A DNA stretch of 64,000 nucleotides from a virus (IMGVR_UViG_3300042314_000343:1-64000), one strand, 5' to 3'. Counted from the stretch's first letter, positions 273 to 36,161 are shown. Numbers and translations are program-made. Notes: a model not told the origin generated them from the sequence alone.

Positions 273-479
273 ATGGAAAGCACAACAGACAACGACAAAA
301 GCATTTTTGAAGAGTATGAGTTTGCTGCTTGGATTAGATCTGGTATTCAGAAGGGTTGGATATCAGAGCCTTTTTGCAACACCCATGATGGCGACCCATA
401 TATGACTGAAGAAGAAGAAAAAGAGTGGGAAGATGGCGGAGACCCATGTTGTCACGTTATCAAGCTACTAAATTACTAA
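273..479 (+). CDS. Hypothetical protein (Cys/His motifs)
   Basis: 68 aa ORF after promoter and SD. Confidence 0.75.
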   Translation: MESTTDNDKSIFEEYEFAAWIRSGIQKGWISEPFCNTHDGDPYMTEEEEKEWEDGGDPCCHVIKLLNY

Positions 480-18910: not shown

Positions 18911-19758
18911 TACCTATATAAACATCTATAGAAAGAATAACCCTATATGCAAGACATAATCCTCATGTTCCTGATATCCCTGATAGGAGCAGCTATTGCT
19001 TTATGGATCAGAGAGCATTAGAAGGCTTTGGAGATATCCCCCTATCCGACTTTCAAGATTGAACTTATACCCTCGCAGAATGGCATACAGAGCTTCTGAG
19101 AGGTGTTTCTGATAGCTTATTTGATGAAATACATCTTACTGGATATGTTTGTTTAGATAGTGAAGCAAGATGGAGAAGTAAGTATTGGGTAATTATGCCC
19201 ATATATATAAGGCTTCGTAATCCATTCTACACCAAATACCCATATCTGTCAATCCTTTTTACCAAATTGTTATATCCCCAATGCCCAAATATCCCTGTTT
19301 ATTTTGTTTAAAAACATAGCAATTTTGGGGAAAAATATATGTCCTTCGTAATCTTTTTTGTCATTATATATACATAATTTGGGAGATTTTATATGTGTAT
19401 CGTAATGTATATTATATAGGGGGAAATCAGGTATGATCTACTGGATACCCTGGCCTTTGGCCACCCGCTTTGCGGGGGTATTGAATAAAGTATAAGCAAT
19501 ATCCCCTATATAAACATAAACAAATAGATCTATATATCACTATACATCTTGATAACCATATAGTCCATATTCTGGGAAAAATATATTTGGGATCGTAATG
19601 TCTTTTTAATCAAACAAACATGTACATAAGTTTCAGGGATTTTTTAAAGTCCTTCGTAATGTCTTTTATGTATATATAGGGAGAAATATGTCATGATCGT
19701 AATACCCTGGCAAACCCTGGAAATGTAGATTTCGGGGAAAAATTATACACCATCGTAA
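18886..19758 (+). repeat. Array of GGG(G)-N15/16(AT-rich)-TCGTAA motifs
   Basis: TCGTAA at 18905, 19215 (no G-run), 19346, 19400, 19593, 19654, 19697, 19753 in a gene-poor convergence zone. Confidence 0.8.
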
Positions 19759-19821
19759 TGTCTTTTGTCAATACCCTGCATGTAACGGTTTGATAACATT
19801 TGGAGCCCCCAGGGGCCCCTC

Positions 19822-19893
19822 AAACAAAAAACTGGTAGAAGATTACGAATACCCCAGTTGCAATAACCGAAAGACGCATATCTCCTACCAGTA
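19822..19893 (-). ncRNA. Candidate small RNA
   Basis: - strand TTGACT-N17-TACAAT promoter, 13-bp stem with a G-U pair on the - strand, U-rich tail. Confidence 0.6.
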
Positions 19894-19907
19894 GTTCTAT
19901 TGTAGCA

Positions 19908-20174
19908 CTACTCCACTACGAAGTCAAGCAAATCATCCAAAGTTTCAAAGCCTGTGTCTTCTTTAATATTTAAACCAGCAAGCAAGACATCGAATGCCTC
20001 CAGGACAAAACCCTCTGCGGTTTCGTTTGCCTTAACCAGACCATTAGAGATTAGGTAAGCCAGTGGCAGTCCAAGATCGTTATACTCCATGAAGTCTTTG
20101 AATTGCTCTTCCCCACGATAGTCCATCCATAAGTCTGCTAGGATACTTATCTTTGCTTCTTTAGTAGTCTCCAT
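19908..20174 (-). CDS. Hypothetical protein (paralog of next gene)
   Basis: Shares N(D/I)x(G/S)LPLA motif with 20177-20464. Confidence 0.75.
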   Translation of the reverse strand: METTKEAKISILADLWMDYRGEEQFKDFMEYNDLGLPLAYLISNGLVKANETAEGFVLEAFDVLLAGLNIKEDTGFETLDDLLDFVVE

Positions 20175-20176
20175 TA

Positions 20177-20464
20177 CTATACCGCCTCTGGAATCGTTAG
20201 TGTCATTATTCGTGTTGGAACCTTTGTAGTTTCATACACAAGGTCAGTTACATCTTCAAGACCACGCTCATCTGCAATCTGCTTGGCGTGTTCGTATGTC
20301 AATCTTAGGTTCTCAGCACCCTTGTCTGTCAAGGTAGCAAATCCGAAATCAACTGCGAATGCCAGCGGTAGAGAAATGTTCTCTTGGTTTACCCACTCAA
20401 TAACATTTGGGTTCTCATCGTGCTCTGTGCCAATGAATGATAGTGCCTTGATAATTTCTTCCAT
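20177..20464 (-). CDS. Hypothetical protein
   Basis: Start moved to MEEIIK (leaderless); the track ATG overlaps the TATAAT box. Confidence 0.7.
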   Translation of the reverse strand: MEEIIKALSFIGTEHDENPNVIEWVNQENISLPLAFAVDFGFATLTDKGAENLRLTYEHAKQIADERGLEDVTDLVYETTKVPTRIMTLTIPEAV

Positions 20465-20494
20465 AGTATCCATTATACCCTTACCCTCCGACTT

Positions 20495-20704
20495 TTAGAA
20501 CAGACTTGTCTGCTCGTATGCGTTTTCTTTTTCCCACTCTGCTGACTCAGTTACTACTAGCAATCTGTTGTAATGGACATTCTGCATTCTTGCTATGTTT
20601 CTTCCTACTTCGTCAAGGTTGATAGTAATTGGTTCTAGCAACTGAACAATCTGCTCTGCTACTTTTTCTTCTCTGCTCTTTGGTAATCGTCTGCTTCTTG
20701 CCAT
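20495..20704 (-). CDS. Hypothetical protein
   Basis: AAGGAGAG SD; TTGACA-N17-GATAAT promoter. Confidence 0.75.
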   Translation of the reverse strand: MARSRRLPKSREEKVAEQIVQLLEPITINLDEVGRNIARMQNVHYNRLLVVTESAEWEKENAYEQTSLF

Positions 20705-20864
20705 TTGGTTGCTCTCCTTGTGTCCATTATCTCATAAGTTGTAGAGGGTGTCAAGGAAGAAAGTAGGAAATCCTTGACACCCCCTGTGTGATACGATGAG
20801 CGACCCCTCACTCATTTGCCGTATCACGTCCCACTGGAGTAGTCTCGACAGTGGGAATCTTTGT

Positions 20865-21251
20865 TTAGTTAGTTAGTCTATCGCCATAGTTACCAGACTC
20901 CAGGTCCTCCCAGTACTTTGGCAATCGATCGAAATACTCTTTGAGTCTGTCTGAAAGCTTGCTCCAGTAGTTCTTTCGGAATTCCTCCAAGCCGTACCAT
21001 AGGTCAGCCTCATCTTTAAAGTAATCATCTCTATTAAATCCAATAGACTGAATCTCTTCAGCTGTTAGGTCAATAGGGTCATCCCACTCATCTTGGTTAC
21101 CGTCCTTATATGCATAGACGTGAATCTTCCAGGACGCTGGGTCAAAGTAGCTATCGCCCTTGTCCTCGTCGTACTCTTCAGGCATGAAGATATTGAGGTC
21201 CCACTCAATGTGCTCCTTGCCTGCATTCTTATTACGCTTATCCAACATAGT
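20865..21251 (-). CDS. Acidic hypothetical protein
   Basis: Track ORF 20865-21308; start uncertain, likely near the upstream stop. Confidence 0.6.
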   Translation of the reverse strand, partial: TMLDKRNKNAGKEHIEWDLNIFMPEEYDEDKGDSYFDPASWKIHVYAYKDGNQDEWDDPIDLTAEEIQSIGFNRDDYFKDEADLWYGLEEFRKNYWSKLSDRLKEYFDRLPKYWEDLESGNYGDRLTN

Positions 21252-21630
21252 TTGTGACATATCCACTACCCTCACATTTCTCACAGTCTGGGTCTCCCCA
21301 GTTATCATTACGCTTTACTAGAACATCTTCTTCTTCGCTGTAGCACTCGCACTCTTCTTCCACGGAAAGAAGAACATAGTCGTCCTCGTCTTCCCAAGGA
21401 ACCTCACAGACATAATAGCTAAGTCTGTTTACAAATGAGTAGCCTGCAACAATAAGTGTTGACAAGTCTGCGTCAACAAGTGTCCAGACATACCTCTGGT
21501 CTAGAGACCTGACATAGTCAACCTCTTCACCATAGGTTTCGAACTGTTGCTCATCATGCTTCCTAAAATGATTAGTCTTAGGCTTGAACTTTGCTTCCCA
21601 CTCTGCCCAACCCTGATACTCTGTTGCCAT
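21238..21630 (-). CDS. Hypothetical protein with C-terminal Cys motif
   Basis: AGAAAGTAGGAAAT leader; CEC...CEKCEGSG. Confidence 0.75.
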   Translation of the reverse strand: MATEYQGWAEWEAKFKPKTNHFRKHDEQQFETYGEEVDYVRSLDQRYVWTLVDADLSTLIVAGYSFVNRLSYYVCEVPWEDEDDYVLLSVEEECECYSEEEDVLVKRNDNWGDPDCEKCEGSGYVTNYVG

Positions 21631-21643
21631 TATTTCCTACTTT

Positions 21644-22168
21644 CTAAAAATGGAAGTCTACAAATACAAGATACCAGTTTTTGTTGCCTGTGTCAATACT
21701 TTCCAACATATATTTTGTATTGGTTGTCTCGTGATACATGTCGTAGAAGTAAGAGTTGAAATCCCACTTGCCCTGTGTCATGTCAATCATCTTGTGTAGG
21801 TCATACAGCTGGAACCCAAAGTCCATTTGTCCGTTATAGCTATCAAGAACACTGTTTATATCAACATTCTTATTGTTGAAAGTTTGGCGGTAGCGATTGA
21901 ATTCCACCATACGTTCTGCAATAGCTTCATCGACAGTATCAAGAAACTTCTTAGGCTCTTCATCATATGAGATAGTCATAGACTGGTCTTCTTCATCATA
22001 GACGTCGCTACCGTTGTCATTCCAACGTCCGCCTCCAGTTATAAACCAGTCATACCAAGAGGATAGGTTATACTCGTCACCCATTTCATTCTCAAGATAA
22101 TCTTTGACTAAACGGAATGCGTGGTCTTTGTCTTCTGCTTGAACTGCTATACGTTGCAATACGTGCAT
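21644..22168 (-). CDS. Hypothetical protein
   Basis: WYDWFITGGGRW...VDFHF; AGAAAG leader. Confidence 0.8.
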   Translation of the reverse strand: MHVLQRIAVQAEDKDHAFRLVKDYLENEMGDEYNLSSWYDWFITGGGRWNDNGSDVYDEEDQSMTISYDEEPKKFLDTVDEAIAERMVEFNRYRQTFNNKNVDINSVLDSYNGQMDFGFQLYDLHKMIDMTQGKWDFNSYFYDMYHETTNTKYMLESIDTGNKNWYLVFVDFHF

Positions 22169-22189
22169 GGGGTTACTTTCTACTAGGGT

Positions 22190-22414
22190 CTAGAATATAT
22201 TATACGCTGAAAAGTCTGAATTGTCAACAGCGAATCTCTGTGCATTCATCCACGCTGCTTCGCCAAAGAAATACTTAGGCTTGCCAGAAACTGGGGAAAC
22301 TTTATAGAAGTCGTAATACTTGTCTGCCTCATATACTGAGACACCACTGTTGTGGAAGATCCTGGTCCACGTTGTGGATCCAACGGATGGTTTCTTAGAT
22401 ACGTGTACTTGCAT
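22190..22414 (-). CDS. Hypothetical protein
   Basis: MQVHVSKK start coupled to the upstream 32-aa ORF. Confidence 0.65.
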   Translation of the reverse strand: MQVHVSKKPSVGSTTWTRIFHNSGVSVYEADKYYDFYKVSPVSGKPKYFFGEAAWMNAQRFAVDNSDFSAYNIF

Positions 22415-22512
22415 TATTCTCCATAACACTTAGGGCAAATTTCATTGGTGTCTTCAAATGAATAGTAAAAGTTACCGTCTACTATTGGTGCTTCGCATTC
22501 ATAGCACTTCAT
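22414..22512 (-). CDS. 32-aa CxxC...CxxC microprotein (not in ORF track)
   Basis: MKCYECEAP...ICPKCYGE*; AGAAAGTAGGA leader, TTGACT-N17-GATAAT promoter. Confidence 0.65.
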   Translation of the reverse strand: MKCYECEAPIVDGNFYYSFEDTNEICPKCYGE

Positions 22513-23453
22513 GAAATCCTACTTTCTTGATACTCAATTATCTCAGAAACTGGGGAAAAAGTCAAGAGGTTCTTAATAGGTATTTTATGACAGTCAGTAC
22601 TGCTTGTCATGATTGCCTGGATCTGGGCCCCCCCGAAGGGGTACCTTAGTTAGATAAAATCGATGATGTCACCATCAAAACCACCCATATCCAAGTCGAA
22701 CATAAGGTCACGATAAGAAATTTCTCCATTAGCTGCCATCTCAAATAGTTCTACTACTTGCTCGTTGTCCATTAGTCATCCTTTTCTTGTAGGGAAGCAA
22801 TTAGTATACCAAGAACCTGTCTTGGTGTCAAGATGTCTAGTGCTGGATTGTCCATAGCACTTTCAATTATTTTGATGGCATAGGCAAGTCCATCTTCCAT
22901 ACCTGCCTCGTAGCCAATCTGCTCCATCTCTGATACAGCCATTAGCAACTCCCATCGTTAGGAATCTCATTCTCTGGCACACCCATCATACGCAATACTG
23001 ATTGGCTTCTGTCAATGACCCCAATAATGTAATCAGAAAAACTATCGTTTATGTCAAGTTCATTCTGCTGAATCATTAGGTCAAGAATGTCTGTCTTCAG
23101 ATAGTCAATGATTTCTTCATTAGTCTTCAACAACTGTTGCCTCCCATACTCCGTCAGGTAGATTAGCGTGATACTCTAGTGCTAGGTCAATAGCCTCGTC
23201 TTCGTCTAATGCTTCCACATCATACTCACAAACATAAGTAACTAGATACTTCTTCATTACACATTCTCCAACATCTCTGCTAGTCGCTGCAATTGTTCTG
23301 GGGTAAGGCTGTTTAGAACATCCTCGTTGATTAGATTACTGTTAGTCCAGTCACTCACTTATTCCTACTTTCTCTCTCAGTTCCTCGTCTGACAAGGATA
23401 CTATTTTATCAAGACCCTCTGACATTATTACATCCAGCAGTTTGCGAAAGTTC

Positions 23454-23702
23454 TCAATCATTCCAGCCAGCCTCTTCTTCTAATGTATAAGGGTTTAGTT
23501 TGTGATTGAAATACATTTCTTGGCACGGCATACAGAAACCAAGTTCCTCGTGCCATACATCTTCTTCTACCTGTGTTCCGCAATAAGCAAATCTATTACA
23601 GGGTAGATAACCATTAGACTCATACTCTTGGTTACCCTCACAGATACGACAGAACGGGTTGCAGTCAAAACTACCATTGTGGTTGGGGCATACTTTTATC
23701 AT
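23454..23702 (-). CDS. Cys-rich hypothetical protein
   Basis: Leaderless MIKVCPNH after TGTCAT-N10-TATAGT; the track start lies inside the promoter. Confidence 0.7.
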   Translation of the reverse strand: MIKVCPNHNGSFDCNPFCRICEGNQEYESNGYLPCNRFAYCGTQVEEDVWHEELGFCMPCQEMYFNHKLNPYTLEEEAGWND

Positions 23703-24377
23703 AGTATCCACTATAGCAGGGGGGTATGACATTATAGAATCTCCACTTCAACGGCCTGGTTCAACTCACCATACTTTACAAAGCTATAGATATCGTCAAT
23801 GTACGATGCCCTGACATATTCCAGCAGGTCTTCTTTGGTCAGATTCTCCATTATCGGATCCTCGTCTGGGTAGTAATCAAAAGTAATACTAGCTCTGATA
23901 ACCCTACTCATACATACCATCCTGAATCTATCTTTACAAAGTGTGTAAGCTTAGCTACCTTATTAGCAATGTAGGTTCCATTGCGTCTTGCCTTAGCTCT
24001 TGATACTGTCATCGGTGTCTCCTACAGGTAGCTTCTTTGTGTCCCATTTTCTTGGCGGTAGATAGCCAAGACTTATAACAACCCATACATACATAAGAAT
24101 CATACGGGTCACCCTTCTTCTTCATAAGATAGATAGTACCGTCACCGTAAGTTGGTAGGTCATCCCTCCAAGACTTAGTCTTCATCTTCCCACTCTTCCC
24201 ACTCTTCTACATAACGCTCAACAGCTTCACATAGAGCTTCCCAAGCTGAATCCGAAAGGTATTCAGGTCTTTCAATGGTAAAGGTATCACTCATCGTCTT
24301 CCTCACTATCTCCATTATCAAAGCCTATCTCACGAAAGAAAGAATCCCATACTCCTCCTGGAGTTGGTTCCCAAGTG

Positions 24378-24569
24378 TTACTCACCATCTTCGTCTTCCT
24401 CTTCCTCGTCTAGTTCCTCAACATCAATAGAGTAAACGCCGTCATAAGTGATTGCGTTGTCATAAGTGTCACCCCAAGATGTCCAAGCCAATTCCTCAGC
24501 GTGTTCCTTTGAATCTGCCTCAATCTCTCCAGCAAAATCAACTTTCATTTGAACATAAAATCTAGCCAT
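24378..24569 (-). CDS. Acidic hypothetical protein
   Basis: GGAAAGGA SD, own -26-type promoter. Confidence 0.75.
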   Translation of the reverse strand: MARFYVQMKVDFAGEIEADSKEHAEELAWTSWGDTYDNAITYDGVYSIDVEELDEEEEDEDGE

Positions 24570-24735
24570 TAGATTTCCTTTCCTACTTGCTTACAAGTAT
24601 AGGGGTAGGGTCTGACATTATCAAGAGATTCTGGGAAATATTTTGTAAGGTTCTTAAAGGTTTATTTGTGAGTAAAAGGTTTGATATACATTGATGGGTT
24701 CTGGGGCCCCCGATCGAACATGCCAAAAGTGGAAT

Positions 24736-24762
24736 GGGCAGTTTTACTACATACCCAGGTAG
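24736..24762 (-). ncRNA. 27-nt H-type pseudoknot, copy 1
   Basis: CTAC-CT-GGGTA-T-GTAG-TAAAAC-TGCCC just 3' of the DUF932 stop. Confidence 0.7.
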
Positions 24763-24768
24763 GAATAC

Positions 24769-25767
24769 TTAGTTAGCCAAAACCAACTGAAGCAAGCGGT
24801 TTTTCTCTGCTGTGGTCACAGGGTCGAAACCAGATGCAGCAGCGAGAATACTCTCGTTAGTTCCACCTCGTGCTGAGCGATACCAATCCAAGCGTTCGGT
24901 TAGAGCGTTGAAAGCACCCCACTTGGTTCCAGCAATGGTGTTGTTGAAGTCACCAACATAGATACCGTTGATTAGGTCAATCTTGTCGTTGTGCTTCTTG
25001 AATGAACCCTTAGCGTCTTTCTCTGGTGCAGGGTAAGCAAGAGCAACAATCTTGTCGAACTGTGCCTTGGTGATTTCGGTCTCAATCATAGCTTTTGCCA
25101 TTTCATCGAACTTGTCCATATAAGCATTTGCCAAGCCTAATGCCTCACGTGCCTGCTGAACCTTGCCAGAAGCGGTAGCGGTGTGGCGAATCTTGAAGGT
25201 CTGCTTGATACCCTTGTTGCCCTTGCCAAGTGCTAGGTTTAGAGTGTTTGCACAGACAACACGCACAGGTGTAATGCTTGCCTGAATTGCCACTGAACCA
25301 TCGTGAGAGGTGTTGATTAGAAGATAAGTGTTTACCTTATCAGACACGCCGTTAGGGTCAAGAACGGTTTCACGCTCAAGAGCAAGCGAACCAAAAACCT
25401 GTCGTCCTCCCTTGATAGAACCAGCGGTCTCCCAGCGACCTCCGCCGTCTAGCATTAGGTCTCCAAAGTCAAATAGGTCTTCGTTCTGCAATGGAACATA
25501 ACGCTCACCAACTACGCCAAGAACATCGTTCTTAGTGTTGTCGAATGGGTTAGTGCGAGTGACAAAAGAGTAAGCCTTGTCAGAGGTGAAGGTGTCTGGA
25601 ATTGCTACGTCCTCTAGGCGAACATTCCACTTGTCAAGGTGTGCCAGCTTTAGCATTTCTGCGGTGGTAACTTCCTCAGTGAAGACAGTGCCAAGTCCGT
25701 GCCAAGCAGGTTCACGCAAAGAAGCAAAAGAGGTCTGTCCGTTTACGGTTTCTAGTTCGTGTGCCAT
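24769..25767 (-). CDS. DUF932 (TIGR03299-like) phage/plasmid protein
   Basis: MAHELE, PAWHGLG, ETAGSIKGGRQVF, NTSHDGS, TPVRVVCANTL, IRHT. Confidence 0.88.
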   Translation of the reverse strand: MAHELETVNGQTSFASLREPAWHGLGTVFTEEVTTAEMLKLAHLDKWNVRLEDVAIPDTFTSDKAYSFVTRTNPFDNTKNDVLGVVGERYVPLQNEDLFDFGDLMLDGGGRWETAGSIKGGRQVFGSLALERETVLDPNGVSDKVNTYLLINTSHDGSVAIQASITPVRVVCANTLNLALGKGNKGIKQTFKIRHTATASGKVQQAREALGLANAYMDKFDEMAKAMIETEITKAQFDKIVALAYPAPEKDAKGSFKKHNDKIDLINGIYVGDFNNTIAGTKWGAFNALTERLDWYRSARGGTNESILAAASGFDPVTTAEKNRLLQLVLAN

Positions 25768-25949
25768 ATGATTTCTTTCTGTTGGGGATTACTGATAAGA
25801 CAATTATACAGTGTAGGTCTGACATTGTAAAGAATCTGGGGAAAAATAATTAGACATCTTAAATAACGTTTTGGTTACGATCATTGATCTGGTGGCTGGG
25901 GGGCCCCACAACTACCCCCAGACTGTCAAGTCCAGGGGTAGCGTGTTGG

Positions 25950-26498
25950 TTACCTAACTAATTGAGAATCCTTACAGCTCACAAGGTAGTCATCTACGCT
26001 CATCTCACGAATGCTCTCAAAAGCCAAGACTAGAGAGATGTCCCAAGAACCCTTATACTTACTAAACTGGGTGTGGAAAAGTTCTCTGTCCAAGTCTACG
26101 GTGTAGATACCCTCGCAGAACAACTCGTCATTCTCAAACTCTAAGTCTCTGACAATAGGGATAGGGGAATCGTCCCAGTCAGCGATTACCCTGAAAATCT
26201 CTCCACCAGTATCTCTGGTTAGAGTTGGAAACTGCTCCGCAAACTTCTTGCCAGAATCCATAGACATAGACCCGTCCATAACTCCGTCCTGAAATGGCTT
26301 TAGAAGTGCTTCCACATCAGAGTCGCTGGGGTAGTAAATCTGTGGAATCTTATCAATAAAAGCCTTCACCACATCAGGGTTAGTCAGGGTATGGAATAGG
26401 GTAACACCCTGTCCCTCTGGATAGTGGTCCCATTGTCCATACTGGGCAACGATAACCTGATTCTTGTAGATAACCTTAGTTAGTCCTCTAGTTCCCAT
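25950..26498 (-). CDS. Hypothetical protein
   Basis: MGTR...YGQWDHYPEGQG; own promoter and SD. Confidence 0.8.
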   Translation of the reverse strand: MGTRGLTKVIYKNQVIVAQYGQWDHYPEGQGVTLFHTLTNPDVVKAFIDKIPQIYYPSDSDVEALLKPFQDGVMDGSMSMDSGKKFAEQFPTLTRDTGGEIFRVIADWDDSPIPIVRDLEFENDELFCEGIYTVDLDRELFHTQFSKYKGSWDISLVLAFESIREMSVDDYLVSCKDSQLVR

Positions 26499-26545
26499 TA
26501 TTCCTACTTTCTATTTAGATTATTATAAACTGGGGGTATGACATT

Positions 26546-26749
26546 TTAGAAGTCAACTAGAATGTCTTGGTCTACTCGTCTACCATACTCAAAAGCCAAG
26601 TTCTCGTCAATGATTTCTATTTCACCAGAACCATTGTCCCACTCCTCAGCAACGCTGGCTGGTAGGTCATCGGTGTCAAGAACATAGATAACACGGTTAG
26701 GCTGGTATTCCCACCAGTCACCATTCTCGTTTGCGATAAAAATTGCCAT
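26546..26749 (-). CDS. Hypothetical protein
   Basis: Start moved to MAIFIANE after AGAAAGGA. Confidence 0.75.
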   Translation of the reverse strand: MAIFIANENGDWWEYQPNRVIYVLDTDDLPASVAEEWDNGSGEIEIIDENLAFEYGRRVDQDILVDF

Positions 26750-27013
26750 TTGTATCCTTTCTTTAGTTATCTTATTATGACACAACCCTCTGACATTATC
26801 AATATCCAGCTTTTGGGGGGCCCCCGATCCAGGCAAAGAAAAACCACCCAAGCGAGGGTATCAGGTAGTATCATTTCTGACCTATGCTTCAACCGATAGC
26901 AGGGTGGTGTTCTTCGCCTCACAGCCTTGCGGTATTGCTAATGCTTGTTTCTTGTATCGTGGAAACCACCACGCTTGTAAGCCGTTGCCTAGGACACTTA
27001 CAAGAGGTCTAGT

Positions 27014-27040
27014 GAGCAGTTTAGACACTTGCTCAGGTGT
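27014..27040 (-). ncRNA. 27-nt H-type pseudoknot, copy 2
   Basis: ACAC-CT-GAGCA-A-GTGT-CTAAAC-TGCTC just 3' of stop at 27047. Confidence 0.7.
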
Positions 27041-27046
27041 GTCCCC

Positions 27047-27502
27047 TTAGATAAGGTCAATCACAGAGGAGTAGGAACTTGCGTTCACTTCCTCTTGAGA
27101 GGTCATCTTTAGGATACGAAGGTTCTTCTCAAGAATTGCCTTACGGGTGGTGTATTCCCTGCCAAAGTGCTGGTTGGTGTTTGGCTGTTCTGGCTTTACA
27201 GGCTTCTTTGGGAAGTTGGCAATAACTGAGATGTCCAACTCAATCTCAAACTTGTTCTGAGAGTAGTGGTTCTGAACTAGACGAATGGTGCTGTCATACT
27301 CAAAGCCAATCTTGTCAGCGTTGTTAGTGATGTAGTTGGTGGCAAACTTAGTTACCTCAGACTTGTATGCCTCTAGGTCTGCCTCATACTGCTTTACCTT
27401 CTCAGGGTAAGACTCAACATCAGCGTCAATCTGGGCAATAGTTGCCTCAATGTCAGCGATTAGAGCAGAGGTTGGGATTTTTACGGAAAGGGTTCTAGCC
27501 AT
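27047..27502 (-). CDS. Hypothetical coiled-coil protein
   Basis: Own promoter and AGAAAG leader. Confidence 0.8.
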   Translation of the reverse strand: MARTLSVKIPTSALIADIEATIAQIDADVESYPEKVKQYEADLEAYKSEVTKFATNYITNNADKIGFEYDSTIRLVQNHYSQNKFEIELDISVIANFPKKPVKPEQPNTNQHFGREYTTRKAILEKNLRILKMTSQEEVNASSYSSVIDLI

Positions 27503-27589
27503 TTCTTTCTACTTTCTTTTGGGTTAGTTACATTATAGGGGAAGGGTGTGACATTTTGGGTAGTTTATTGTGATACCCAGCACATCTGC

Positions 27590-27811
27590 CTAGAAAATAC
27601 CGAATACCTTCTTGCGAGGTTCAGTAATAGTCTTGACAATGACCTTTGGTTCTGGCATAGCCAAGAAACGGGTCTGGTTGGTAGCACCATCAAAAGTGCC
27701 GTTTGGGTTGCGAACAACTGCCTTGATACCTTCGCCAGACTTGGTGTTCCAAATCTCGGTGCGAACTTCTAGGCGTTGGTTTTTCTTCTGTGAAATAATC
27801 TTTCCAGACAT
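27590..27811 (-). CDS. Hypothetical basic protein
   Basis: Own promoter and GAGGA SD. Confidence 0.7.
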   Translation of the reverse strand: MSGKIISQKKNQRLEVRTEIWNTKSGEGIKAVVRNPNGTFDGATNQTRFLAMPEPKVIVKTITEPRKKVFGIF

Positions 27812-27920
27812 TTTATTCCTCTTTCTTTTCAGGGTAGTTCTATTGTAAAGGTGGGGTATGACATTTTAGTAAGAGGGGGGATAGAGAAAGGATAAGAAAC
27901 GCTATCCCCCCAAGACTAAA

Positions 27921-28067
27921 TTACTTTACAGTAGTCCAGCGGTCTTGACCATTTACATCAAGACGAACACGGAACGAACCCGTCTTGTTCTGGATTACTT
28001 CCTGAATTACACCTGACACGCCAGACTTAGCGGTGGTGAACTGTGAGCCAACAGTTAGAGTGTTCAT
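27921..28067 (-). CDS. 48-aa SH3/KOW-like microprotein (not in ORF track)
   Basis: MNTLTVGSQFTTAKSGVSGVIQEV...RWTTVK* with AGGAAG SD. Confidence 0.65.
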   Translation of the reverse strand: MNTLTVGSQFTTAKSGVSGVIQEVIQNKTGSFRVRLDVNGQDRWTTVK

Positions 28068-28273
28068 TTTGCTTCCTATTCCGCCCCAGAGGGACTGTTT
28101 TGATTATTTACCAACTTTTGTTGATAGGTCTATTATGCCAGAAAAATGAATAAACCACAAGAGGGAAACACTATTTTCTTTACAAAGTTTTGGGGGATTT
28201 TTTGTAGGTTTCGTAAATTGACAAGCAGTAGGCTGGGGGGGGCTCCGTTAGATCTTTGGGGGCCCCGAAAGGT

Positions 28274-28300
28274 GGCCAGTTTTACGTCATGGCCAGGACG
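28274..28300 (-). ncRNA. 27-nt H-type pseudoknot, copy 3
   Basis: CGTC-CT-GGCCA-T-GACG-TAAAAC-TGGCC. Confidence 0.7.
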
Positions 28301-28363
28301 TGGTCCGCAATGCATGTTAGTTAGAAAGGATATGCGGACCGTCCCATATTCCCCTATGAGAAT

Positions 28364-29080
28364 TTACTTTTTAGACCTAGAGAATAGGATGTCATTACGC
28401 TCATAGACACACTGGCCACAGGTAACGCAGGCAGAACCCTTATCACTAATTAGTTTTAGTTTCTTGTTGTTTTCAGGGCAGGGCACAGCAGACTTTACAG
28501 TTATCTCTAGCATACGCTCTTTGCCAGCTGCAAAGTTTTCTGCAAGGTATGCAAGCTTGACGCCAGTAGTTGCTTTTAGCTTACTTGCCAATTCAAAGTT
28601 AGCGTCATCAGCTGAAAAGTAAAGTGCTAGGTTTGGAATGTTCTGCAATACAGGAACCGCAAAGTCGCTGCGAGTGTATACCCAGAATTGAGTATCAGAA
28701 TGCTTTTTGATTACGGTTGCCCAAGCAATGGCATACTGAACACTAAAGAAGTCGCCGTCCCAGTGAATGCGAAACAGCTTGTCTGCATTACGCTTGTCAC
28801 AGTCTTTCTTGAAGTCAATAATCATCTCATCAAGCAACATAACCATTTGAGGATACTTAGCGTCCTTGAGTTGGTTCCAATTGTCAACTAGAATGTCTTT
28901 AACACCCTTGTAAATTCTTTCAAGGTTGCCAGCATAACAAATTTTTTCGCAAACGGATGTTGCTCCAGGGCATGAGTAAGCCTTGCCAGAAGGCAGACCA
29001 AAGGTGTTGGCAATGGTTGGCGTCTTACCGTTAGGGGAGACGGCGTTGGTTACTTTTCTATCTTTTGAACGTCTTAGCAT
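28364..29080 (-). CDS. GP88-like (radical-SAM-related) phage protein
   Basis: SCPGATSVCEKICYA, FRIHWDGDFF, WVYTRS, ACVTCGQC; start MLRRSK after GAAAGGA. Confidence 0.75.
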   Translation of the reverse strand: MLRRSKDRKVTNAVSPNGKTPTIANTFGLPSGKAYSCPGATSVCEKICYAGNLERIYKGVKDILVDNWNQLKDAKYPQMVMLLDEMIIDFKKDCDKRNADKLFRIHWDGDFFSVQYAIAWATVIKKHSDTQFWVYTRSDFAVPVLQNIPNLALYFSADDANFELASKLKATTGVKLAYLAENFAAGKERMLEITVKSAVPCPENNKKLKLISDKGSACVTCGQCVYERNDILFSRSKK

Positions 29081-29176
29081 TTGGGGGAATCCTTTCAACT
29101 AACTACAGTATAGGATATGGGTCTGACATTTTTAGCAGCATGTCTATGATCTGGGGGGCCCCCGAAGGGGTAGAGG

Positions 29177-29458
29177 TTAGTCCTCTAACCCTTCCTCATC
29201 AAGTTCCAGCCAAGGGTCAAGGTGATGTTGCTCAATGATAGCCGAGGTTGGAGCGTGAGTTCCACCCTTCCACTTGACAGGCTTAGGCAACTCAACAGGC
29301 TTATACCATCTACCCTCAAGAGCGTTCTGGATAGCCTCAATACAGGCTGGAACCATAGAAACTGGAACAGGTGGATAGTGGTTGCTCTGCAAGTGCCAAG
29401 CGATAGCGTCTTCCATAGATAGCATTTCTGCCATTTCTACTGCCTGAAGTGAACCCAT
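29177..29458 (-). CDS. Hypothetical protein
   Basis: MGSLQA...WHLQSNHYPPVP; coupled to upstream stop. Confidence 0.7.
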   Translation of the reverse strand: MGSLQAVEMAEMLSMEDAIAWHLQSNHYPPVPVSMVPACIEAIQNALEGRWYKPVELPKPVKWKGGTHAPTSAIIEQHHLDPWLELDEEGLED

Positions 29459-29640
29459 TAGTTGCTCTCCTTTTCTGCCTTGATTTCGGCTAGTTTTCTT
29501 TCTGCGTATTCGATTAGTTCTTCTTGCTTTGCCTTGGTTAGAGAAGTCCACACCATACCAAAGGCGAAGGCATAGGGACTAGAGTAAGGACCACTGCCTA
29601 CTCGCTCTTTCGCATACTCAATCATCTTGTCGCTGTTCAT
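29458..29640 (-). CDS. Hypothetical protein
   Basis: AGAAAGGA SD, own promoter. Confidence 0.75.
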   Translation of the reverse strand: MNSDKMIEYAKERVGSGPYSSPYAFAFGMVWTSLTKAKQEELIEYAERKLAEIKAEKESN

Positions 29641-29687
29641 CTGTATCCTTTCTAAGTTAGTTAGAGATTACCATAGGGGACTGACAT

Positions 29688-29825
29688 TTATTTCCAGAAC
29701 TCATACTTCATTTGAATTACAGCGTATTCAATTAGTTCTGCTTCAATGCCCTTCAACTCTCTACCAATGATTTTGACAGCGTGTTCCTTGATGTAGTCCA
29801 TTACTTCTGGGGTAGTGAGTTCCAT
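29688..29825 (-). CDS. Hypothetical microprotein
   Basis: Start moved to MELTTPE, downstream of the promoter at 29867-29888. Confidence 0.6.
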   Translation of the reverse strand: MELTTPEVMDYIKEHAVKIIGRELKGIEAELIEYAVIQMKYEFWK

Positions 29826-31077
29826 TACTTTACCAACTTTCTTGCTGAGGGGTGTCCAACTCTTATAGCATAGCATTGGGGGCAGACATTTATTGTTTTG
29901 ATAGTGAATAGGTTTCTAGTTAGTTTGTTACAGTCAAAGCAGTTGTAGTTAGTCATTTCGCAACTCCCAACCATTTATCCAGCCAGCCTCATACCAACCC
30001 TTTACCAAGTCAATAGTTTCCTGCTTGCTTGCCTCATCAACCCAGATAGGGGATTCGCTAAAGTCCTTGTGAATTGCTACTACCTTCATTAGTTGCCACT
30101 TTCTCTAATAGCCTTGTTTTTGTTACTCTGGCGTGTGCCTTTGTATTTGTCTGGGGTGACAATTTGCTTCTTGCCAGCCTTTAGCATTTGTCCAAATAGT
30201 GCTTGGCTCTCAGCCTTGCGTCTTGCTTCATTTCTTTTACCTAACATACCTGAAGTATAACAGGATGGTCTGACATTTTGGGGATATTTTTTAATGTTTC
30301 GTAAGAAAATTTTTGGGAAAATTTCGGGGGCTCTCTTAAAGAGTTCTTAAAGATATTTATAGATCATGCCCAGGGTGATCTGGTGGATCGGGGGTAGGCG
30401 GTTGGGGTACCCTCCTAGTCGAAGGCGTACCTAGAGGCATACAGTTCACCGATAGCCTGCTCCTCCCGAAGGCGAGCCTGAGCCAAGTCAGACTTAGCCT
30501 GCTCCTCTGGGGAGAGAGTCTCCTCCTCCCAGAAGTCGTCGTCCAGCGACCAGCCAAAATCCTGTGCCATATCTTCCATAGTTTATCCTCTCTAACCTAC
30601 CTATAACCTATCACACCCCACGGACATTTAGCAACATTGGTTTATAACAGTTTGATAACGGGGGGCCCCATTCGGGCGTGTCGTTTAGAACTCAGGTCGC
30701 TCGCAGTCGCCGTATTCGTGTCCACAGCAAGGGTAGTCTTCACATCTCATAGTTTATCCTTTCAATTACTTATAGATTACATCAGGGGTCAGACTTTTAT
30801 CGATCCTTGGCCTGGGCCCCCGAAACTCAAGATTTGTCAAATCCTGGTTCGGCGTGTCGCCTAGAATGGTGGCTTGTTTCTTTCCACACCCTTGCGGTAG
30901 CCAACTCCGTGAGCAACTACAAACACTAGGGCAACTAGGACTAGGTCTACTAGTAGGTTGAATCCGTTGTAAAAAATCATCTCTATCTACTTTCTTCTGT
31001 TAGGAATAGCTTATCAGGGGTATCAGACAACATCAAGTCTATTTTCCAAATTAGTTCTTCTAGTTCTGCAATAGTCA

Positions 31078-31227
31078 TTATACCAACTCCAAGTATTCTT
31101 CTGGGAATGTTTCACCAAGATAAGACTTGGCATCTCTCAAGGGCATTAGTCCCTTGTAGTCGTTGCACTCGTGGCAAACATAGTCGTTCACCAAGTTCAT
31201 ACAAAACACGCAAATCTGTTCTGACAT
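31078..31227 (-). CDS. Small CxxC/CxxC protein
   Basis: MSEQICVFC...CHEC; the track start lies in the ATGTCAG promoter element. Confidence 0.7.
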   Translation of the reverse strand: MSEQICVFCMNLVNDYVCHECNDYKGLMPLRDAKSYLGETFPEEYLELV

Positions 31228-31276
31228 TTTTACCTTCTTTCTATTTGTTATAAACTTATCGGCAGGGTCTGACATT

Positions 31277-31486
31277 TTAGTTCAGACTATTTAGCAATTC
31301 TAGGTTTCTTAGGCTAGCTCCAGGCTTGGAGAAGTCTAGCTCTCTGGTAAGTAGCACCTTACGCTGACGGCACACGCCAAGAGTGTGAGTAGTCTCCCAC
31401 AACTTCTTGTCTAGGCGGTAAGAGACATTGGTGGTCTGAGACATACCGCACCCGTTGCAGGTGGTCTTGCGATACATTGTGGTCAT
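31277..31486 (-). CDS. Small Cys-containing protein
   Basis: MTTMYRKTTCNGC; the track start lies in the ATGTCAG promoter element. Confidence 0.7.
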   Translation of the reverse strand: MTTMYRKTTCNGCGMSQTTNVSYRLDKKLWETTHTLGVCRQRKVLLTRELDFSKPGASLRNLELLNSLN

Positions 31487-32325
31487 TGGGATACCTTTCT
31501 TTCTAACTACTACAAACCTAGCACATAGGTCTGACATTTATGAGTAGCGTTTGGTAACAGTTTGGTAACATTGCTAAATCCTATATCTAGTGGGTGCAAG
31601 ATCTTTCGGCACTACATATTGTGGGGGGGCCCGAAACCAGGGGATCTGTCAAATCGACACGCCGTGTTTTACCAACTTTTCTTGGTGCCGAGTGACTTAG
31701 CCAATTTGATTAGGTCAGATACCTGCTTGATTTCTGAATCATCTGGAATTCTATCCCCAATGATTTCAATCATTATGTCAATCTCACGCTCAACCTCTGA
31801 TAGGGAGAGAATGTCTAGCTTGCGAAAGTTCTCCATTAGTTTACCTCCTCTGGCTTTAGGTCTACCAAGCCAAGTCTAATCTGGGTGAGAGTATACTCAA
31901 CCATAGCCTCTTCCATAGCGGTTAGGTCACGCTCTAGGACACCCTGCAACTTTGCTACTAGGATACCCTTGGTCTCATCTGTGATTTTTGCTTGTAGCAT
32001 TTATTCCTTCTTTCTAACTTATCTAAAATCTAGCATAGGGGTCTGACTTTTTACTTACTTACTGACTCGCAGTAGAAGCAGTCATCTGAAATTGTCTGAG
32101 GAACAATTCCGTGAAACTCGCAGTTGTAGGCTACATCCCTACCATTTACTTTCTTAGTTTCTACATTTTTCATTTATTTATCCTTTCTTTATCTACCTAT
32201 AGTCAATCAGATAATTAGTCATTTGTCAAGCTTATTTAGGTAAACATTAGGTAAACAATTTGTAACAGATAGGTAACGACGGGGGCCCACAAAAAACCTG
32301 GTATGTCAAGTGACACGCCCTACAT

Positions 32326-32532
32326 CTAGTACAGGCTTGTACTAAACATAGGCTTGACCAACTCAACAGGGTCTTTAGCCTCAACTAAAGTGTAGTCAGA
32401 CACCTTGTTAGGCTTGTCTGAACACTCGTGAAAGTCAAAGGCTGACTTAGCCATACGGAGATTGGAAGCGATCTCCTCATTACCGCAAGAGTCGCACTCT
32501 ACTAGGTATCCACTCGTTGTAACTCTGAACAT
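32326..32532 (-). CDS. Small zinc-binding protein
   Basis: CDSC...HEC; AGAAAGGATAA SD; own promoter. Confidence 0.75.
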   Translation of the reverse strand: MFRVTTSGYLVECDSCGNEEIASNLRMAKSAFDFHECSDKPNKVSDYTLVEAKDPVELVKPMFSTSLY

Positions 32533-33089
32533 TATTTATCCTTTCTAACTACCTATACACTAACAGGTAGGTCTGACATTTTTAGTTAGCACCTAGGTTG
32601 ACGATAGAACCGTCTTCCAACTCAATGCGATATCCCTGAATCTCTAGGTTCCAGTAAGCCTTAGTGTAGAAGCCAATAACCTCAGCCTTGTGCTGTGGGT
32701 CAAAGCCATAGGTGGTCTCAGTGTTGTCGTTGTTTCTGGTAGTTACTAGCATTTCTTTTATCCTTTTTCTTTCTTTCTTTATACTTATACTATAGTGCCT
32801 ATGGGCGACATTATTAGACTGAATTGCTTGTTATTTAGGTTAACATTAGGTTAACAATGGGGCCCCCATTTCGGGGTACTTGTCAAGCTACCTAAGACTA
32901 GTAACGAAGTAGAGTAAGACTAAAGGTATCGATCTCACCAGTACGAACCATCTGAGTGTAAGCATCGAATGCAGTGTAGTAGTGCTCAGGGTCGAAGAAG
33001 TATTCGGTTCTGATTCCGTCTTTTAGAACTGTTGCTTTCATTTCTATCCTTTGTTTGATAAGTCTATTATGGGGTAGGTGTCTGACTTT

Positions 33090-33299
33090 TTAGTTGGTGA
33101 ATCCTGGTAGCTTGATGAATGACTCACCGTCTGCCATTGCACAAGCAAAAGTCTCATCGCAGTAGCCGTAGTCTGGAATTCCTGTATACTCAGCAGAACA
33201 AGTGTCGCACACTACGAACACGCCCTCACACTGAACGGTATACATAGTGCCGTCTAGCAACTTTACCTGAGTTCCCTTGTTCTCTACTACTACTGACAT
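33090..33299 (-). CDS. Small Cys-rich protein
   Basis: C...CDTC...C...C; AAGGAAAG SD; own promoter. Confidence 0.75.
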   Translation of the reverse strand: MSVVVENKGTQVKLLDGTMYTVQCEGVFVVCDTCSAEYTGIPDYGYCDETFACAMADGESFIKLPGFTN

Positions 33300-34194
33300 T
33301 TGCTTTCCTTCTTTCTTGATACTTATAATTTAGTAGATGGCACTGACATTGTCAAATTAAACACACATTATTGTGTAACATTTTTATAACAGCAGGGGCC
33401 CACAAAAAAATCGGTATGTCAAGCGACACACCTCATTCCTTTAGAGTATTAGTGGATTTCTCCATACTCTTCCCAGCAACCTGGGCAAGCATACTCGCCC
33501 TCCTCTGCTACGAAGATTTTTTCTACTACTACATCACATAGTTCACAAGTTGAAAACATTTTTTATCCTTTCTATGTTTTTCTTTATTTATCTTTATATA
33601 CATATTCAATCACAGAAATGGCTGTTTGTCAAGTCTATTTGCGTGTTTCTAAATGAACGTTAGGTTAACAAATCATTGGGGTGGCACGGGTGCTCTTGGA
33701 TCTTGAACCTGGATGTGTGCTCACTAAAAAAGAGTTGTTTTCTTTTAAAAATCATGCATCATACATCTCTGCAAAATATTCAGATTTTGGTCATTTTGCT
33801 TTTTAAAATTTTTTTCAGAATGCTCCAGGAGGCAAAAATATATTTTTTCAGATTTTGCAAGTATCTATTATAACAATTCGATAACGAAATAGTAACATAG
33901 CACAAATTTGGGTATATATTATAACGTTTTGGTAACATTTATATAAACATTCTGTTATTTTTGGGGGTATAATAGATCTATGAGTGAAACTCCAGTAAAG
34001 AACAATCCAGAATGCAAGTGTGAAAGCTGCAAGTGTGGAAAGAACTAGTCTTCTTTAGAATATAAACAAGACAATTGCTCTGATAGATGCTATCCAGGCA
34101 TAAACTATTGCTGCGTATCCAGCTAACCTAAGAAATTTCTTTATTTTCATACTATTAGTGTATCAAAATTCGACGGTACACAATGGCGAAGCCA

Positions 34195-34413
34195 TCACCA
34201 TTTACCAATAGGACACTTAGCTTGAAGCAATGTAGTCTTTAACTGCATAAAGCAACCACACTTGCCACATCTCTGAGTATGAGGCTTAAACGATGCACAT
34301 CCCTTACATGTTTCCAGGCGTTGCTCAATTAACTCCTGATCGGACCTAGGCTTGCTTTTATCGAATAGGTCGAAAAAGGTGACATCCCTCTGTCCTGATG
34401 TATTGTCTTCCAT
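34195..34413 (-). CDS. Small Cys-rich protein (DUF6171-like), copy 1
   Basis: RLETCKGC...RCGKCGCFM..KT.L..AKCPIGKW. Confidence 0.75.
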   Translation of the reverse strand: MEDNTSGQRDVTFFDLFDKSKPRSDQELIEQRLETCKGCASFKPHTQRCGKCGCFMQLKTTLLQAKCPIGKW

Positions 34414-34753
34414 TGTGATATTTTAGCATATCCTTCATACTAGTGTCTATTTGGGCTATTTGGTAATTGGTTATATTTTATACCCCCGAAACTTAGAAAG
34501 CTCCACAGGCTTTCCCATAGAATGCATTTTGCATATTTGTTGGGGATGGTGTGGTGGGCATCTCTCGCCACGAACTAAAAGCGAACTTATATTGCGGTGA
34601 GCTTTATATCCAAACATATCTCAAACGCCGTAGAATCGATTTTGAGAGCTTTTAAATGTATTTGAGCTTACCGACCCGCCGAGCTTTTTTGGACCCGTCA
34701 GGAAGCCGTACAGCAACACTATTTAATTTTAAAAAACTAATATAATTATTCAT

Positions 34754-35038
34754 ATGACCCCAATCGAAATAGCTAATATGACTTTGGGTATTTTTATATC
34801 AATAGGAACAGTTATTTCTCTAGCAGCTTTAGGAATCAGATGGCTGGTAAAACATTATTTTGATGAGATCAAAAAAGAACTAAAGCCTAATCACGGATCA
34901 AGTATAAAAGATCAGGTAACGAGATTAGAACAAAAAGTTGAAGAATCAGAAGCAAAGAGAAAGGCGATGTCACAAAAGATAGATCACATGTATGATTTGC
35001 TAATAGACTTTTTCTCAGATCAGGCATCAAAGAAATAA
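34754..35038 (+). CDS. Membrane protein with coiled coil
   Basis: TM helix, ELKPNHGSSIKDQVTRLE; leaderless. Confidence 0.75.
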   Translation: MTPIEIANMTLGIFISIGTVISLAALGIRWLVKHYFDEIKKELKPNHGSSIKDQVTRLEQKVEESEAKRKAMSQKIDHMYDLLIDFFSDQASKK

Positions 35039-35237
35039 CGACTTGCGATTATTATTATTTATATATATTATATAAGGTATAAAGGTATATAGGTTTTATT
35101 TATATATATTATTTATATATAGATTATACACACAGAAAACACTTTGTCAATCACTTTTTATATTAAATTCACATAACGACTTTATAACAATTAATAACAA
35201 CCCTTTAAAATAGCGAAATCTGATATAATTTTAAACG

Positions 35238-35293
35238 AACTGGTGTCCAGGAGAAATCTCTCATACCCACACTCCTGGGCATCAGTTTTTTTA
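35238..35293 (+). ncRNA. Candidate hairpin small RNA
   Basis: TATAAT at 35224; 16-bp stem with two G-U pairs, 18-nt C/U-rich loop, T-run. Confidence 0.6.
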
Positions 35294-35313
35294 TTTAATG
35301 TTATAATAGCGTC

Positions 35314-35685
35314 ATGACTATTCAGGATCAATTTGGGCAAAAGCCTATTAACTTAAAGTGGAACATCGTTCGTGGTGATACCGCCAAACTTAAAGTAGAG
35401 TTTCTTGAGAATAATGAGACTACACCTTTTGACACAGAAGGATGGGAATACTCTTCATCTGCCTATGATACTCGTGGAGATTTTCTTGACGAACTTGAAG
35501 TTGTTGTTGAGGATGGCTATATTCAAATTGTAGCCAATTCAGACATTACTGAGAACTGGGGAGTAGGCTCAGGTGCAGTAGTTGCAGAGCTAGTCTTTGA
35601 CCTAGAGGTTACAATTGATGATGAAGTATGGACACCAGTCCTAGGAACCATTGTTGTTGCTGGTGATGTTACTGGAGGACTCTAG
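35314..35685 (+). CDS. Baseplate/BppU-like Ig-fold virion protein
   Basis: IVRGDT...FDLEV...G pattern shared with 35805 and 40901. Confidence 0.6.
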   Translation: MTIQDQFGQKPINLKWNIVRGDTAKLKVEFLENNETTPFDTEGWEYSSSAYDTRGDFLDELEVVVEDGYIQIVANSDITENWGVGSGAVVAELVFDLEVTIDDEVWTPVLGTIVVAGDVTGGL

Positions 35686-35804
35686 TGCCAGTTATTAGAA
35701 TCTCAAGCCCTAGACCAGAACTACCTCCGTTGATCAAGATTGGTCAAAAGATTTACAAGACAAATAAATAGTCTTTGTAGTGTATAATAATTTTTGGAGG
35801 AATT

Positions 35805-36161
35805 ATGGCATTTCCAGGCACATATAACATTTCGTATTACAAGGGTGATACGTATGAATTTAGAATTTACCCGAAAACTAACGCAGGCACAATCTTTGAT
35901 CTAACTGGTTACTCTGTTAAGTTTATGATTTCTGCTCTTCGTGGTCCAGATGGCGTAGCTGGAAGAATTACCGCATACGCATCCATTTCATCTGACAAGA
36001 CGCACATTGATTGTGCAATTTTGCCAGGTAACGGTGCATCACTAGACCCACTAGTAACATATGTTTATGACGTAGAGATATCTAAGACTGCAACTCCGTA
36101 TTCTTTGGTCAACACAGTACTTACTGGAGAGATCTCTGTAACAGATCAGGTGAGCACGTAA
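35805..36161 (+). CDS. Baseplate/BppU-like virion protein
   Basis: YKGDT...FDLTGY...YVYDVEI...LTGEI. Confidence 0.6.
   Translation: MAFPGTYNISYYKGDTYEFRIYPKTNAGTIFDLTGYSVKFMISALRGPDGVAGRITAYASISSDKTHIDCAILPGNGASLDPLVTYVYDVEISKTATPYSLVNTVLTGEISVTDQVST

Follow-up and report, generated by a model that had tools for sequence, protein, structure and literature searches.

A candidate family of hairpins with leader-complementary loops in early-gene 3' untranslated segments of an uncultured phage group

We analysed the sequence IMGVR_UViG_3300042314_000343:1-64000 (the window), which covers the initial 64 kb of a 103,317-bp IMG/VR virus record with a completeness of ~95% and a GC content of 43%. The minus strand of the window carries three hairpins, H1, H2 and H3, that lie beyond stop codons and display apical loops that are exact complements of Shine-Dalgarno (SD) leaders in the same gene block. 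Sequence comparisons indicate that H1-H3 belong to an uncatalogued family of hairpins in early-gene 3' untranslated segments, found within one uncultured phage group. We tentatively favor the reading that these anti-leader loops in 3' untranslated region (3'-UTR) hairpins would repress translation of the early class, either in cis, like icaR, or in trans, like LhrC and RNAIII, and we give it slightly less than an even chance. The term "early" is applied here by analogy to the minus-strand block at 19.0-35.3 kb, which contains ~60 small genes with sigma-70-like promoters.

Three hairpins and the leaders matched by their loops

Read as minus-strand RNA, the three hairpins are as follows.

20743-20785, minus strand: H1, a 15-bp stem (12 perfect bp at 20746-20782) with the 13-nt loop UUUCCUACUUUCU at 20758-20770
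27875-27911, minus strand: H2, a 10-bp stem with a 17-nt loop at 27885-27901 that contains UUAUCCUUUCU
28297-28345, minus strand: H3, 8 bp (28302-28340) plus 5 outer bp, with a 23-nt loop at 28310-28332 that begins UAUCCUUUCUAACUAAC

A preliminary description of this DNA had placed all three hairpins here and assigned them to 3' noncoding segments, and both points held. Each hairpin folds better than shuffled sequences, with predicted free energies (dG) of -26.7 for H1 (z -6.4; 0/200 shuffles were equally good), -19.4 for H2 (z -4.6) and -19.8 for H3 (z -3.8). The loops are unpaired in minimum-free-energy and centroid folds, also when 145-nt contexts are folded, and H1 and H2 are among the 13 perfect hairpins of at least 9 bp in the whole genome. 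H1 is placed 83 nt past the stop at 20865, H2 9 nt past the stop (27921) of a 48-aa gene (28067..27921), and H3 23 nt past the stop (28364) of a gene for a gp88-like protein. The three stems are mutually unrelated.

Exact complements of the loops all lie 2-9 nt ahead of minus-strand gene starts, and every loop/leader match quoted in the preliminary description proved to be exact. The H2 loop finds 11-nt complements at 33563, 32536 and 32178. The leaders concerned, and the gene that H3 follows, are listed below.

21633-21645, minus strand: leader AGAAAGUAGGAAA of gene 21630..21238, a 13/13 match to the H1 loop, with sister leaders at 26501-26512 and 23362-23373 (12 nt each) and at 22517-22527 (11 nt)
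32536-32551, minus strand: leader UAGUUAGAAAGGAUAA of gene 32532..32326, a 15/15 match to the H3 loop (32537-32551) and an 11-nt match to the H2 loop, with sister leaders at 33563-33574, 32178-32188, 30754-30763, 29644-29655 and 26753-26762
29089-29103, minus strand: leader GUUAGUUGAAAGGAU of the gp88-like gene (start 29080), which pairs with the H3 loop save for one bulged base
28364-29080, minus strand: the gp88-like gene itself (Pfam PF17338, E 3e-53)

The AGAAAGUAGGAAA leader and its sisters are the top genome-wide sense-strand targets of the H1 loop, with dG values of -15.7 to -17.2, and the UAGUUAGAAAGGAUAA leader pairs with the H3 loop at a dG of -25.5. The H3 loop also matches the leader of the gp88-like gene that it follows (15/16 bases with one bulge, dG -18 to -21, rank 2/233). 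In the related locus L004, an H3-type loop ranks its own gp88-like leader 1/135, and the gp88-like leader of locus L003 forms 16 contiguous pairs with the loop, including one G.U. The leader with the 13/13 match to H1 sits ~850 nt upstream in the same string of genes. Cis pairing within one transcript would fit these sequence data equally well as pairing in trans. Cis action on the gene directly downstream of each hairpin was rejected, because each such leader is a poor pairing partner for the loop beside it.

The 103,317 bp contain 18 copies of the leader 8-mer AGAAAG[G/T]A, of which 13 lie in sense orientation within the early block, almost always in SD position. Only three antisense copies lie within the block, and they are the loops of H1, H2 and H3. 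Because only 1.8% of block positions could hold the 8-mer inside the loop of a hairpin of at least 8 bp, the probability of three such placements out of three is ~5.6e-6, and the presence of antisense leader 8-mers in loops is beyond chance. The loops of the family are 12-23 nt long and share a pyrimidine tract, U(U/A)UCCUUUCU(U) or, in H1, CCUACUUUCU, which is the Watson-Crick complement of the extended early leader, (U)AGAAAGGAUAA or AGAAAGUAGGAA. Such leader tags are repeated, AGAAAGUAGGAA in four copies and UAGAAAGGAUAA in six or more.

H2 can adopt an alternative fold at 27886-27911 (minus strand), in which the purine-rich 5' arm GGGGGGAUA pairs with UAUCCUUUC of its own loop (9 bp, three of them G.U). 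This fold is a possible switch between masked and exposed states of the anti-leader tract. Two more strong hairpins lie at 20788-20856 (minus strand), between the stop at 20865 and H1, and the 145-nt segment reaches -62 kcal/mol when folded (z -6.6). Upstream of H1, the related loci L082-L084 have a sequence different from 20788-20856 of the window.

Conservation in related phages

The gp88-like protein preceding H3 was used as a query and retrieved 80 related loci, and the gene preceding H1 added three more; the counts given here are over 84 loci. Orthologs of the three hairpins were found in the following loci.

L082, L083 and L084: H1 orthologs; among the inner 6 pairs, 5 differ (three by double changes, two by a change to G.U), 3'-arm TTGACA kept, 13-nt loop invariant
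L002 and L003: H2 orthologs; both bases replaced in 4/11 pairs (0-1 in slid controls), 97% of cells paired; one change in the 17 nt of the loop
L003 and L004: H3 orthologs; stem identical, first 17 loop nt identical
L005: hairpin at the H3 position; unrelated 11-bp stem with the same AUAUCCUUUCU loop core

The preliminary description had made conservation of the loops in relatives a test of its proposal, and the loops are indeed near-invariant despite substitutions in the stems. The motif CCUUUCU is present in the loops of 19 distinct sense-strand hairpins of at least 8 bp, compared to a mean of 1.2 for 34 permuted heptamers. On the opposite strand, the count is only 2/301, and the ratio of sense to opposite strand is 20 to 2. 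Stem wobbles number 21 for G.U and 5 for A.C, and so it is the sense-strand RNA that stays foldable. Family members begin 0-30 nt past a stop codon, and several have the stop within the 5' arm. The fold, its conservation and the strand that folds are direct observations, and the compensatory changes in these alignments argue that the hairpins are real, conserved and strand-specific structured RNA elements.

These comparisons bear on two explanations in which the minus-strand loops have no role as RNA. In the first, the hairpins are functionless fossils or by-products, namely inverted copies of a portable "stop-stop-SD" leader cassette that became trapped between inverted repeats by shuffling. 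The H3 loop does resemble a leader followed by ATG when read on the plus strand, and the long portable consensus UAGUUAGAAAGGAUAA is common to early leaders. This origin is nonetheless highly improbable: several lineages retain the loop although their stems have been replaced or co-vary, the 19 distinct hairpins are all in sense orientation, and the G.U bias is the mark of selection on an RNA fold.

The second explanation places the function on the plus strand, where the loops would be ribosome-binding sites (RBSs) of open reading frames (ORFs) or SD-displaying loops of an antisense RNA. We consider this scarcely credible. The loops read as good SDs on that strand (AGAAAGUAGGAAA, AGAAAGGAUA), but no start codon stands at a workable distance after H1, where the first ATG is 26 nt off, or after H2, and the ATG located 1 nt past the GGA after H3 opens only 24 codons and is missing in L005. 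A plus-strand ORF that uses the loops as its RBS, which the preliminary description had named as evidence that would overturn it, was rejected on these grounds. Moreover, sense-strand G.U pairs would become A.C mismatches on the plus strand, and the 20-to-2 orientation of the motif favors the sense strand. A 60-aa minus-strand ORF with its start inside the H3 loop (28133..28315) is not a gene, because its ATG is missing in L003 and L004.

Rfam searches at gathering thresholds and at E<=1, covering window positions 19000-36000 and six related loci, returned tRNAs and noise only and no family. Neither a hairpin of this type nor the pseudoknot described below was found in 9 kb round the gp88-like gene of Streptomyces phage Muntaha. 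A 16-mer loop query of IMG/VR gave at least 116 matches, among them 79 ordinary opposite-strand SD leaders and three hairpins, all three from this phage group. The corresponding 14-mer query for H1 gave at least 110 matches, with one extra ortholog among the matches listed. When 23 members were aligned with MAFFT, the result was structurally inconsistent, and a covariance model built from three H2 orthologs was too specific, weakly recovering nine known members together with a few new candidates.

The source is probably an actinobacterial-type phage, uncultured and of low GC, with an uncultured host. The genome contains tRNA genes, has TATAAT 6-8 nt ahead of ATG in many genes (a leaderless architecture), encodes a Pfam GP88 protein (a mycobacteriophage family) and a DUF932 protein, and has late-gene SDs such as AGGAGGUGA and GAAAGGAGG that match the canonical 16S rRNA tail, ...CACCUCCUUUCU. 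Megablast identified no near relatives among cultured phages, and distant blastn hits showed weak similarity over short stretches, only to Streptomyces and Mycobacterium phages.

Predicted targets and the 16S rRNA tail

Duplex predictions showed that at least one of the loops beats the 16S tail by >2 kcal/mol on 25/32 early leaders, but on only 1/22 late SD leaders. Composition-matched shuffled loops reached 7.6 +/- 3.3 early leaders and never more than 18 over 200 trials. The best genome-wide sense-strand targets of each loop are early leaders, so that the complementarity is specific to this gene class. The preliminary description had further proposed that SD-led early genes are silenced while leaderless later genes are immune. 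The first part agrees with the predicted targets, which are early SD leaders, whereas the division into early and leaderless genes is less clean than supposed: the early block has leaderless starts too, at its upstream end (34413 and 33938 are examples), with TATAAT 6-8 nt before the ATG.

The genome uses two SD dialects, one on the minus strand at 21-34 kb (early) and the other on the plus strand at 35-103 kb (late). The early dialect, AGAAAGGA(U/A)A or AGAAAGUAGG, pairs with the extreme 3' end of 16S rRNA and avoids GGAGG, and late genes have AGGAGG(UGA) or are leaderless. Early leaders often have the form stop-stop-SD-stop-start (UAGUUAGAAAGGAUAAAUAAUG), which resembles a portable insulated RBS cassette.

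Two of the loops had initially been described as mimics of the 16S 3' tail, and in its simple form this was not supported. H2, H3 and most of the relatives' loops do contain UCCUUUCU, the last 8 nt of actinobacterial 16S rRNA. However, the CCUCC core is present in 0/23 catalogued loops, which have (A/U)UCC, ACC or CCC ahead of UUUCU instead. The catalogued loops carry AU, UU, A or C before CCUUUCU and 1-4 U after it, past the 16S 3' end, and on both sides these flanks are complementary to the consensus of the early leaders, (A)AAGAAAGGA(U/A)A. The exception is a distant hairpin in L028/L030 (L028:5602-5640), a later covariance-model match with a loop that carries UUUUCCUCC, the canonical anti-SD core. 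In addition, the H1 loop and its four leaders share a G-to-U / C-to-A deviation from the consensus (CCUACUUUCU vs AGAAAGUAGG), and therefore rRNA mimicry cannot account for this variant. Judged by their sequences, the loops are not plain 16S-tail mimics.

The same data speak to the possibility that the loops are decoys of the 16S tail, which would bind or distract a factor that recognizes or cuts the anti-SD, such as a MazF-type UCCUU-specific endoribonuclease of host defense, in a manner comparable to phage pseudo-ToxI mimicry. We hold this to be very unlikely. The UCCUUUCU loops are what such a decoy would offer, and the late-gene SDs AGGAGGUGA and GAAAGGAGG fit the same tail. Against this stand the missing CCUCC (L028/L030 apart), the 2-4 U by which loops run past the 16S end, loop flanks that match early leaders rather than rRNA, and the H1 loop, which has CCUAC without UCCUU and yet is equally conserved.

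Several observations weigh against repression by leader pairing. The duplex energies given above leave out loop topology and competition with the 30S subunit, and the formation of 13 pairs by a closed 13-nt loop would require the stem to open. The longest exact loop/leader match is 8-16 nt within a phage's own 8.7-kb locus and averages 9-10 nt with other loci, which is no general excess. Most loops therefore match the group-wide leader consensus and not leaders that co-evolve with them. At the base next to GGA, agreement with the modal leader is seen in only ~9/16 phages, and these cases are mutually related. The AGAAAGUAGG leader is also found in distant relatives where no H1 turned up. Covariation of loops with leaders, which the preliminary description had put forward as a check, thus comes down to a weak trend at one base that is confounded by relatedness. 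Finally, L046 has a hairpin at the H2-equivalent position (6772-6804) with a different pyrimidine loop, UUCCUUACCCUUG, that pairs poorly with the phage's own leaders (dG -8), and so a hairpin can exist without anti-leader function.

Gene-end context, pseudoknots and possible modes of action

The main rival is that the hairpins are purely structural gene-end punctuation: fused to the next promoter in the manner of the PeSLs of T4-type phages, they would mark 3' ends, terminate transcription or act as exonuclease barriers. The loop would then be kept for a protein or RNase reader, or simply by descent, and its SD complementarity would have no regulatory consequence. We regard this as a serious but rather unlikely explanation. 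The promoter that links H1 to the next gene is located as follows.

20726-20754, minus strand: sigma-70-type promoter TTGACA-17-(TG)GATAAT of gene 20704..20495, an 11/12 match with the TG extension

The -35 hexamer of this promoter is part of the H1 3' arm, a layout that is also found in L082 and L084, and because the arm holds the -35 box, the hairpins also serve as terminator/promoter-type punctuation. PeSLs are composite terminator/promoter cassettes (PMC2839356, PMC4122927). H1 resembles them in that its stem-loop is physically continuous with an early sigma-70 promoter and both lie between small early ORFs, and the link is weaker for H2 and H3. PeSLs differ in that a repeated stem and promoter sequence mediates shuffling without a conserved anti-SD loop, whereas here no single stem/promoter sequence is repeated across junctions, the stems are unrelated and the loop is conserved.

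Punctuation is also consistent with the placement of family members 0-30 nt past a stop and ahead of a promoter or GC-rich block, with the U-rich tails that follow the stem in some relatives only (L017, L044), with the non-matching loop that L046 keeps at the H2 position, and with loop/leader matches that show no phage-specific excess. However, H1-H3 would be poor intrinsic terminators. Their stems qualify, but the loops of 13, 17 and 23 nt exceed the 3-8 nt expected, and a terminator scan listed none of the three. No U-tract follows the stems: H1 is followed by CUCUACAACUU, H2 by CUCUUACUAAAA and H3 by a pseudoknot. Punctuation also leaves several features of the loops without an explanation, namely that they are more conserved than the stems in orthologs, that their motif is 16-fold enriched over permutations, that composition-matched shuffled loops pair early leaders far worse, and that the H1 loop and four leaders carry one specific variant.

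Two other gene-end hairpins, at 25911-25942 and 33413-33432 (minus strand), have TTGACA in the loop or 3' arm, and the latter has a U-tract. A terminator-like hairpin that overlaps a -35 box is a recurrent design in the early block.

The pseudoknot next to H3 is the following element.

28273-28301, minus strand: H-type pseudoknot of 29 nt, directly 3' of H3, with S1 ACGUC/GACGU, S2 UGGCCA/UGGCCA and an A-rich third loop

Two more copies lie in the window at 27013-27041 and 24735-24763 (minus strand). All three are just past a stop codon, and the latter two have no hairpin. Copies are 27-29 nt long, with an S1 of 4-5 bp, an S2 of 6 bp (UGRSCA/UGSYCA) and a third loop of (U)AAAAC, and both stems co-vary. 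In relatives, the pseudoknot trails 12 of the ~20 anti-leader hairpins, usually directly. These elements were located with a specific pattern (a permissive scanner gave noise only), and the pseudoknot had no Rfam match. A compact 3' pseudoknot of this kind could stabilize a 3' fragment. At L009:3107-3200, a hairpin-plus-pseudoknot is followed directly by what appears to be the 5' part of a tRNA gene.

Under the favored reading, in which the loops repress the early class, any stem sequence would serve provided that its arms pair, and the apical loop would display the pyrimidine tract. The exposed loop would base-pair with early leaders and occlude the SD site, which would lower or end translation of the class. 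The cis route would join 3' UTR and 5' leader inside one early transcript, as in S. aureus icaR, and the trans route would rely on a stable 3'-end fragment that acts like the CU-rich loops of LhrC or RNAIII. The loops do not match late genes, which are leaderless or led by a GGAGG core, and these would escape. The hairpins would double as gene-end punctuation, and the H3 pseudoknot might stabilize the 3' fragment. From the sequence patterns we infer leader pairing and repression, by either route, together with any timing that would follow.

A more elaborate proposal, which we think improbable, is that the hairpin, often with its pseudoknot, is excised from early mRNAs as a stable small RNA (sRNA) that reads a private leader code, AGAAAGGAUAA / AGAAAGUAGGAA. 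Its accumulation would shut off the early class while leaderless and GGAGG genes stay translatable, which would amount to an RNA-only switch from early to late translation.

Phages already provide RNAs of a related kind. The c4 antisense RNA of phages P1/P7 (Rfam RF01695) and the P4 CI RNA are made from the transcript of their targets, and their loops pair with sites that include the RBS. The hairpins described here share the same-transcript origin and the predicted pairing of loops with RBS sites. They have no sequence or structure match to c4 in the E<=1 Rfam searches noted above, and they lie downstream of most predicted targets, whereas c4 is upstream of its targets and controls immunity. 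Hairpins H7, H13 and H14 of RNAIII are CU-rich loops of a Firmicutes sRNA. LhrC has UCCC in loop A and in the terminator loop (PMC4132741). Both sRNAs resemble H1-H3 in presenting anti-SD seeds in exposed hairpin loops, including the 3'-terminal one, to multiple SD targets. In contrast, they are stand-alone sRNA genes with their own promoters rather than mRNA 3'-UTR hairpins, and the seed here is 8-16 nt and covers leader bases beyond the reach of 16S rRNA.

The closest cis counterpart is the 3'-UTR of the S. aureus icaR mRNA, which has the anti-SD motif UCCCCUG (PMC3868564). As in icaR, a 3'-UTR pyrimidine motif is the complement of the SD in its own mRNA, in this case the H3 loop and the gp88-like leader (dG ~-21). 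The icaR element is cellular, targets one leader and pairs so as to keep 30S subunits from binding and to form a site for RNase III cleavage, whereas here the motif is in a phage, lies in the apical loop of a co-varying hairpin, matches many leaders of a gene class in each loop, and has pairing predicted from sequence. Cluster K mycobacteriophages have start-associated sequences (SAS/ESAS; PMC3203893), which are likewise actinophage tags, longer than an SD, just ahead of the start codons of a gene subset, as are AGAAAGUAGGAA and UAGAAAGGAUAA. A complementary loop RNA is not described for SAS, and the tags found here overlap a recognizable SD. Mycobacteriophages also make abundant stable early noncoding RNAs (PMC5712189). 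The general kind of regulation would thus be known already, and what appears to be new is that it would occur in a phage, from a 3'-UTR position, would read an extended leader code common to a whole gene class, and is partnered by a pseudoknot.

If repression by anti-leader loops is correct, it would provide a protein-free and cheap shut-off of one gene class through a loop that is antisense to a class-specific leader. The early-to-late switch of phages is usually ascribed to transcription factors, sigma factors and nucleases such as T4 RegB. The same mechanism would explain why early leader tags are longer than 16S pairing needs, and would suggest a possible function for the start-associated leader tags of actinophages, a question open since 2011. 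Leader/loop pairs could also offer compact orthogonal translational control for Actinobacteria.

The favored reading also draws on a cis anti-SD stem elsewhere in the genome. At 217-276 (plus strand), an 11-bp stem joins 221-231 to 257-267, and AACCCCUUUCU / CCCCUUUCU pairs with the SD AGAAAGGGGUU of the gene that starts at 274. The first arm lies inside the spacer of a TTGACA...TATACT promoter, and the SD at 257-267 would be masked in read-through transcripts only, and not in those begun at the promoter. As read from its sequence, this genome demonstrably uses pairing between anti-SD and SD in cis at 221-267.

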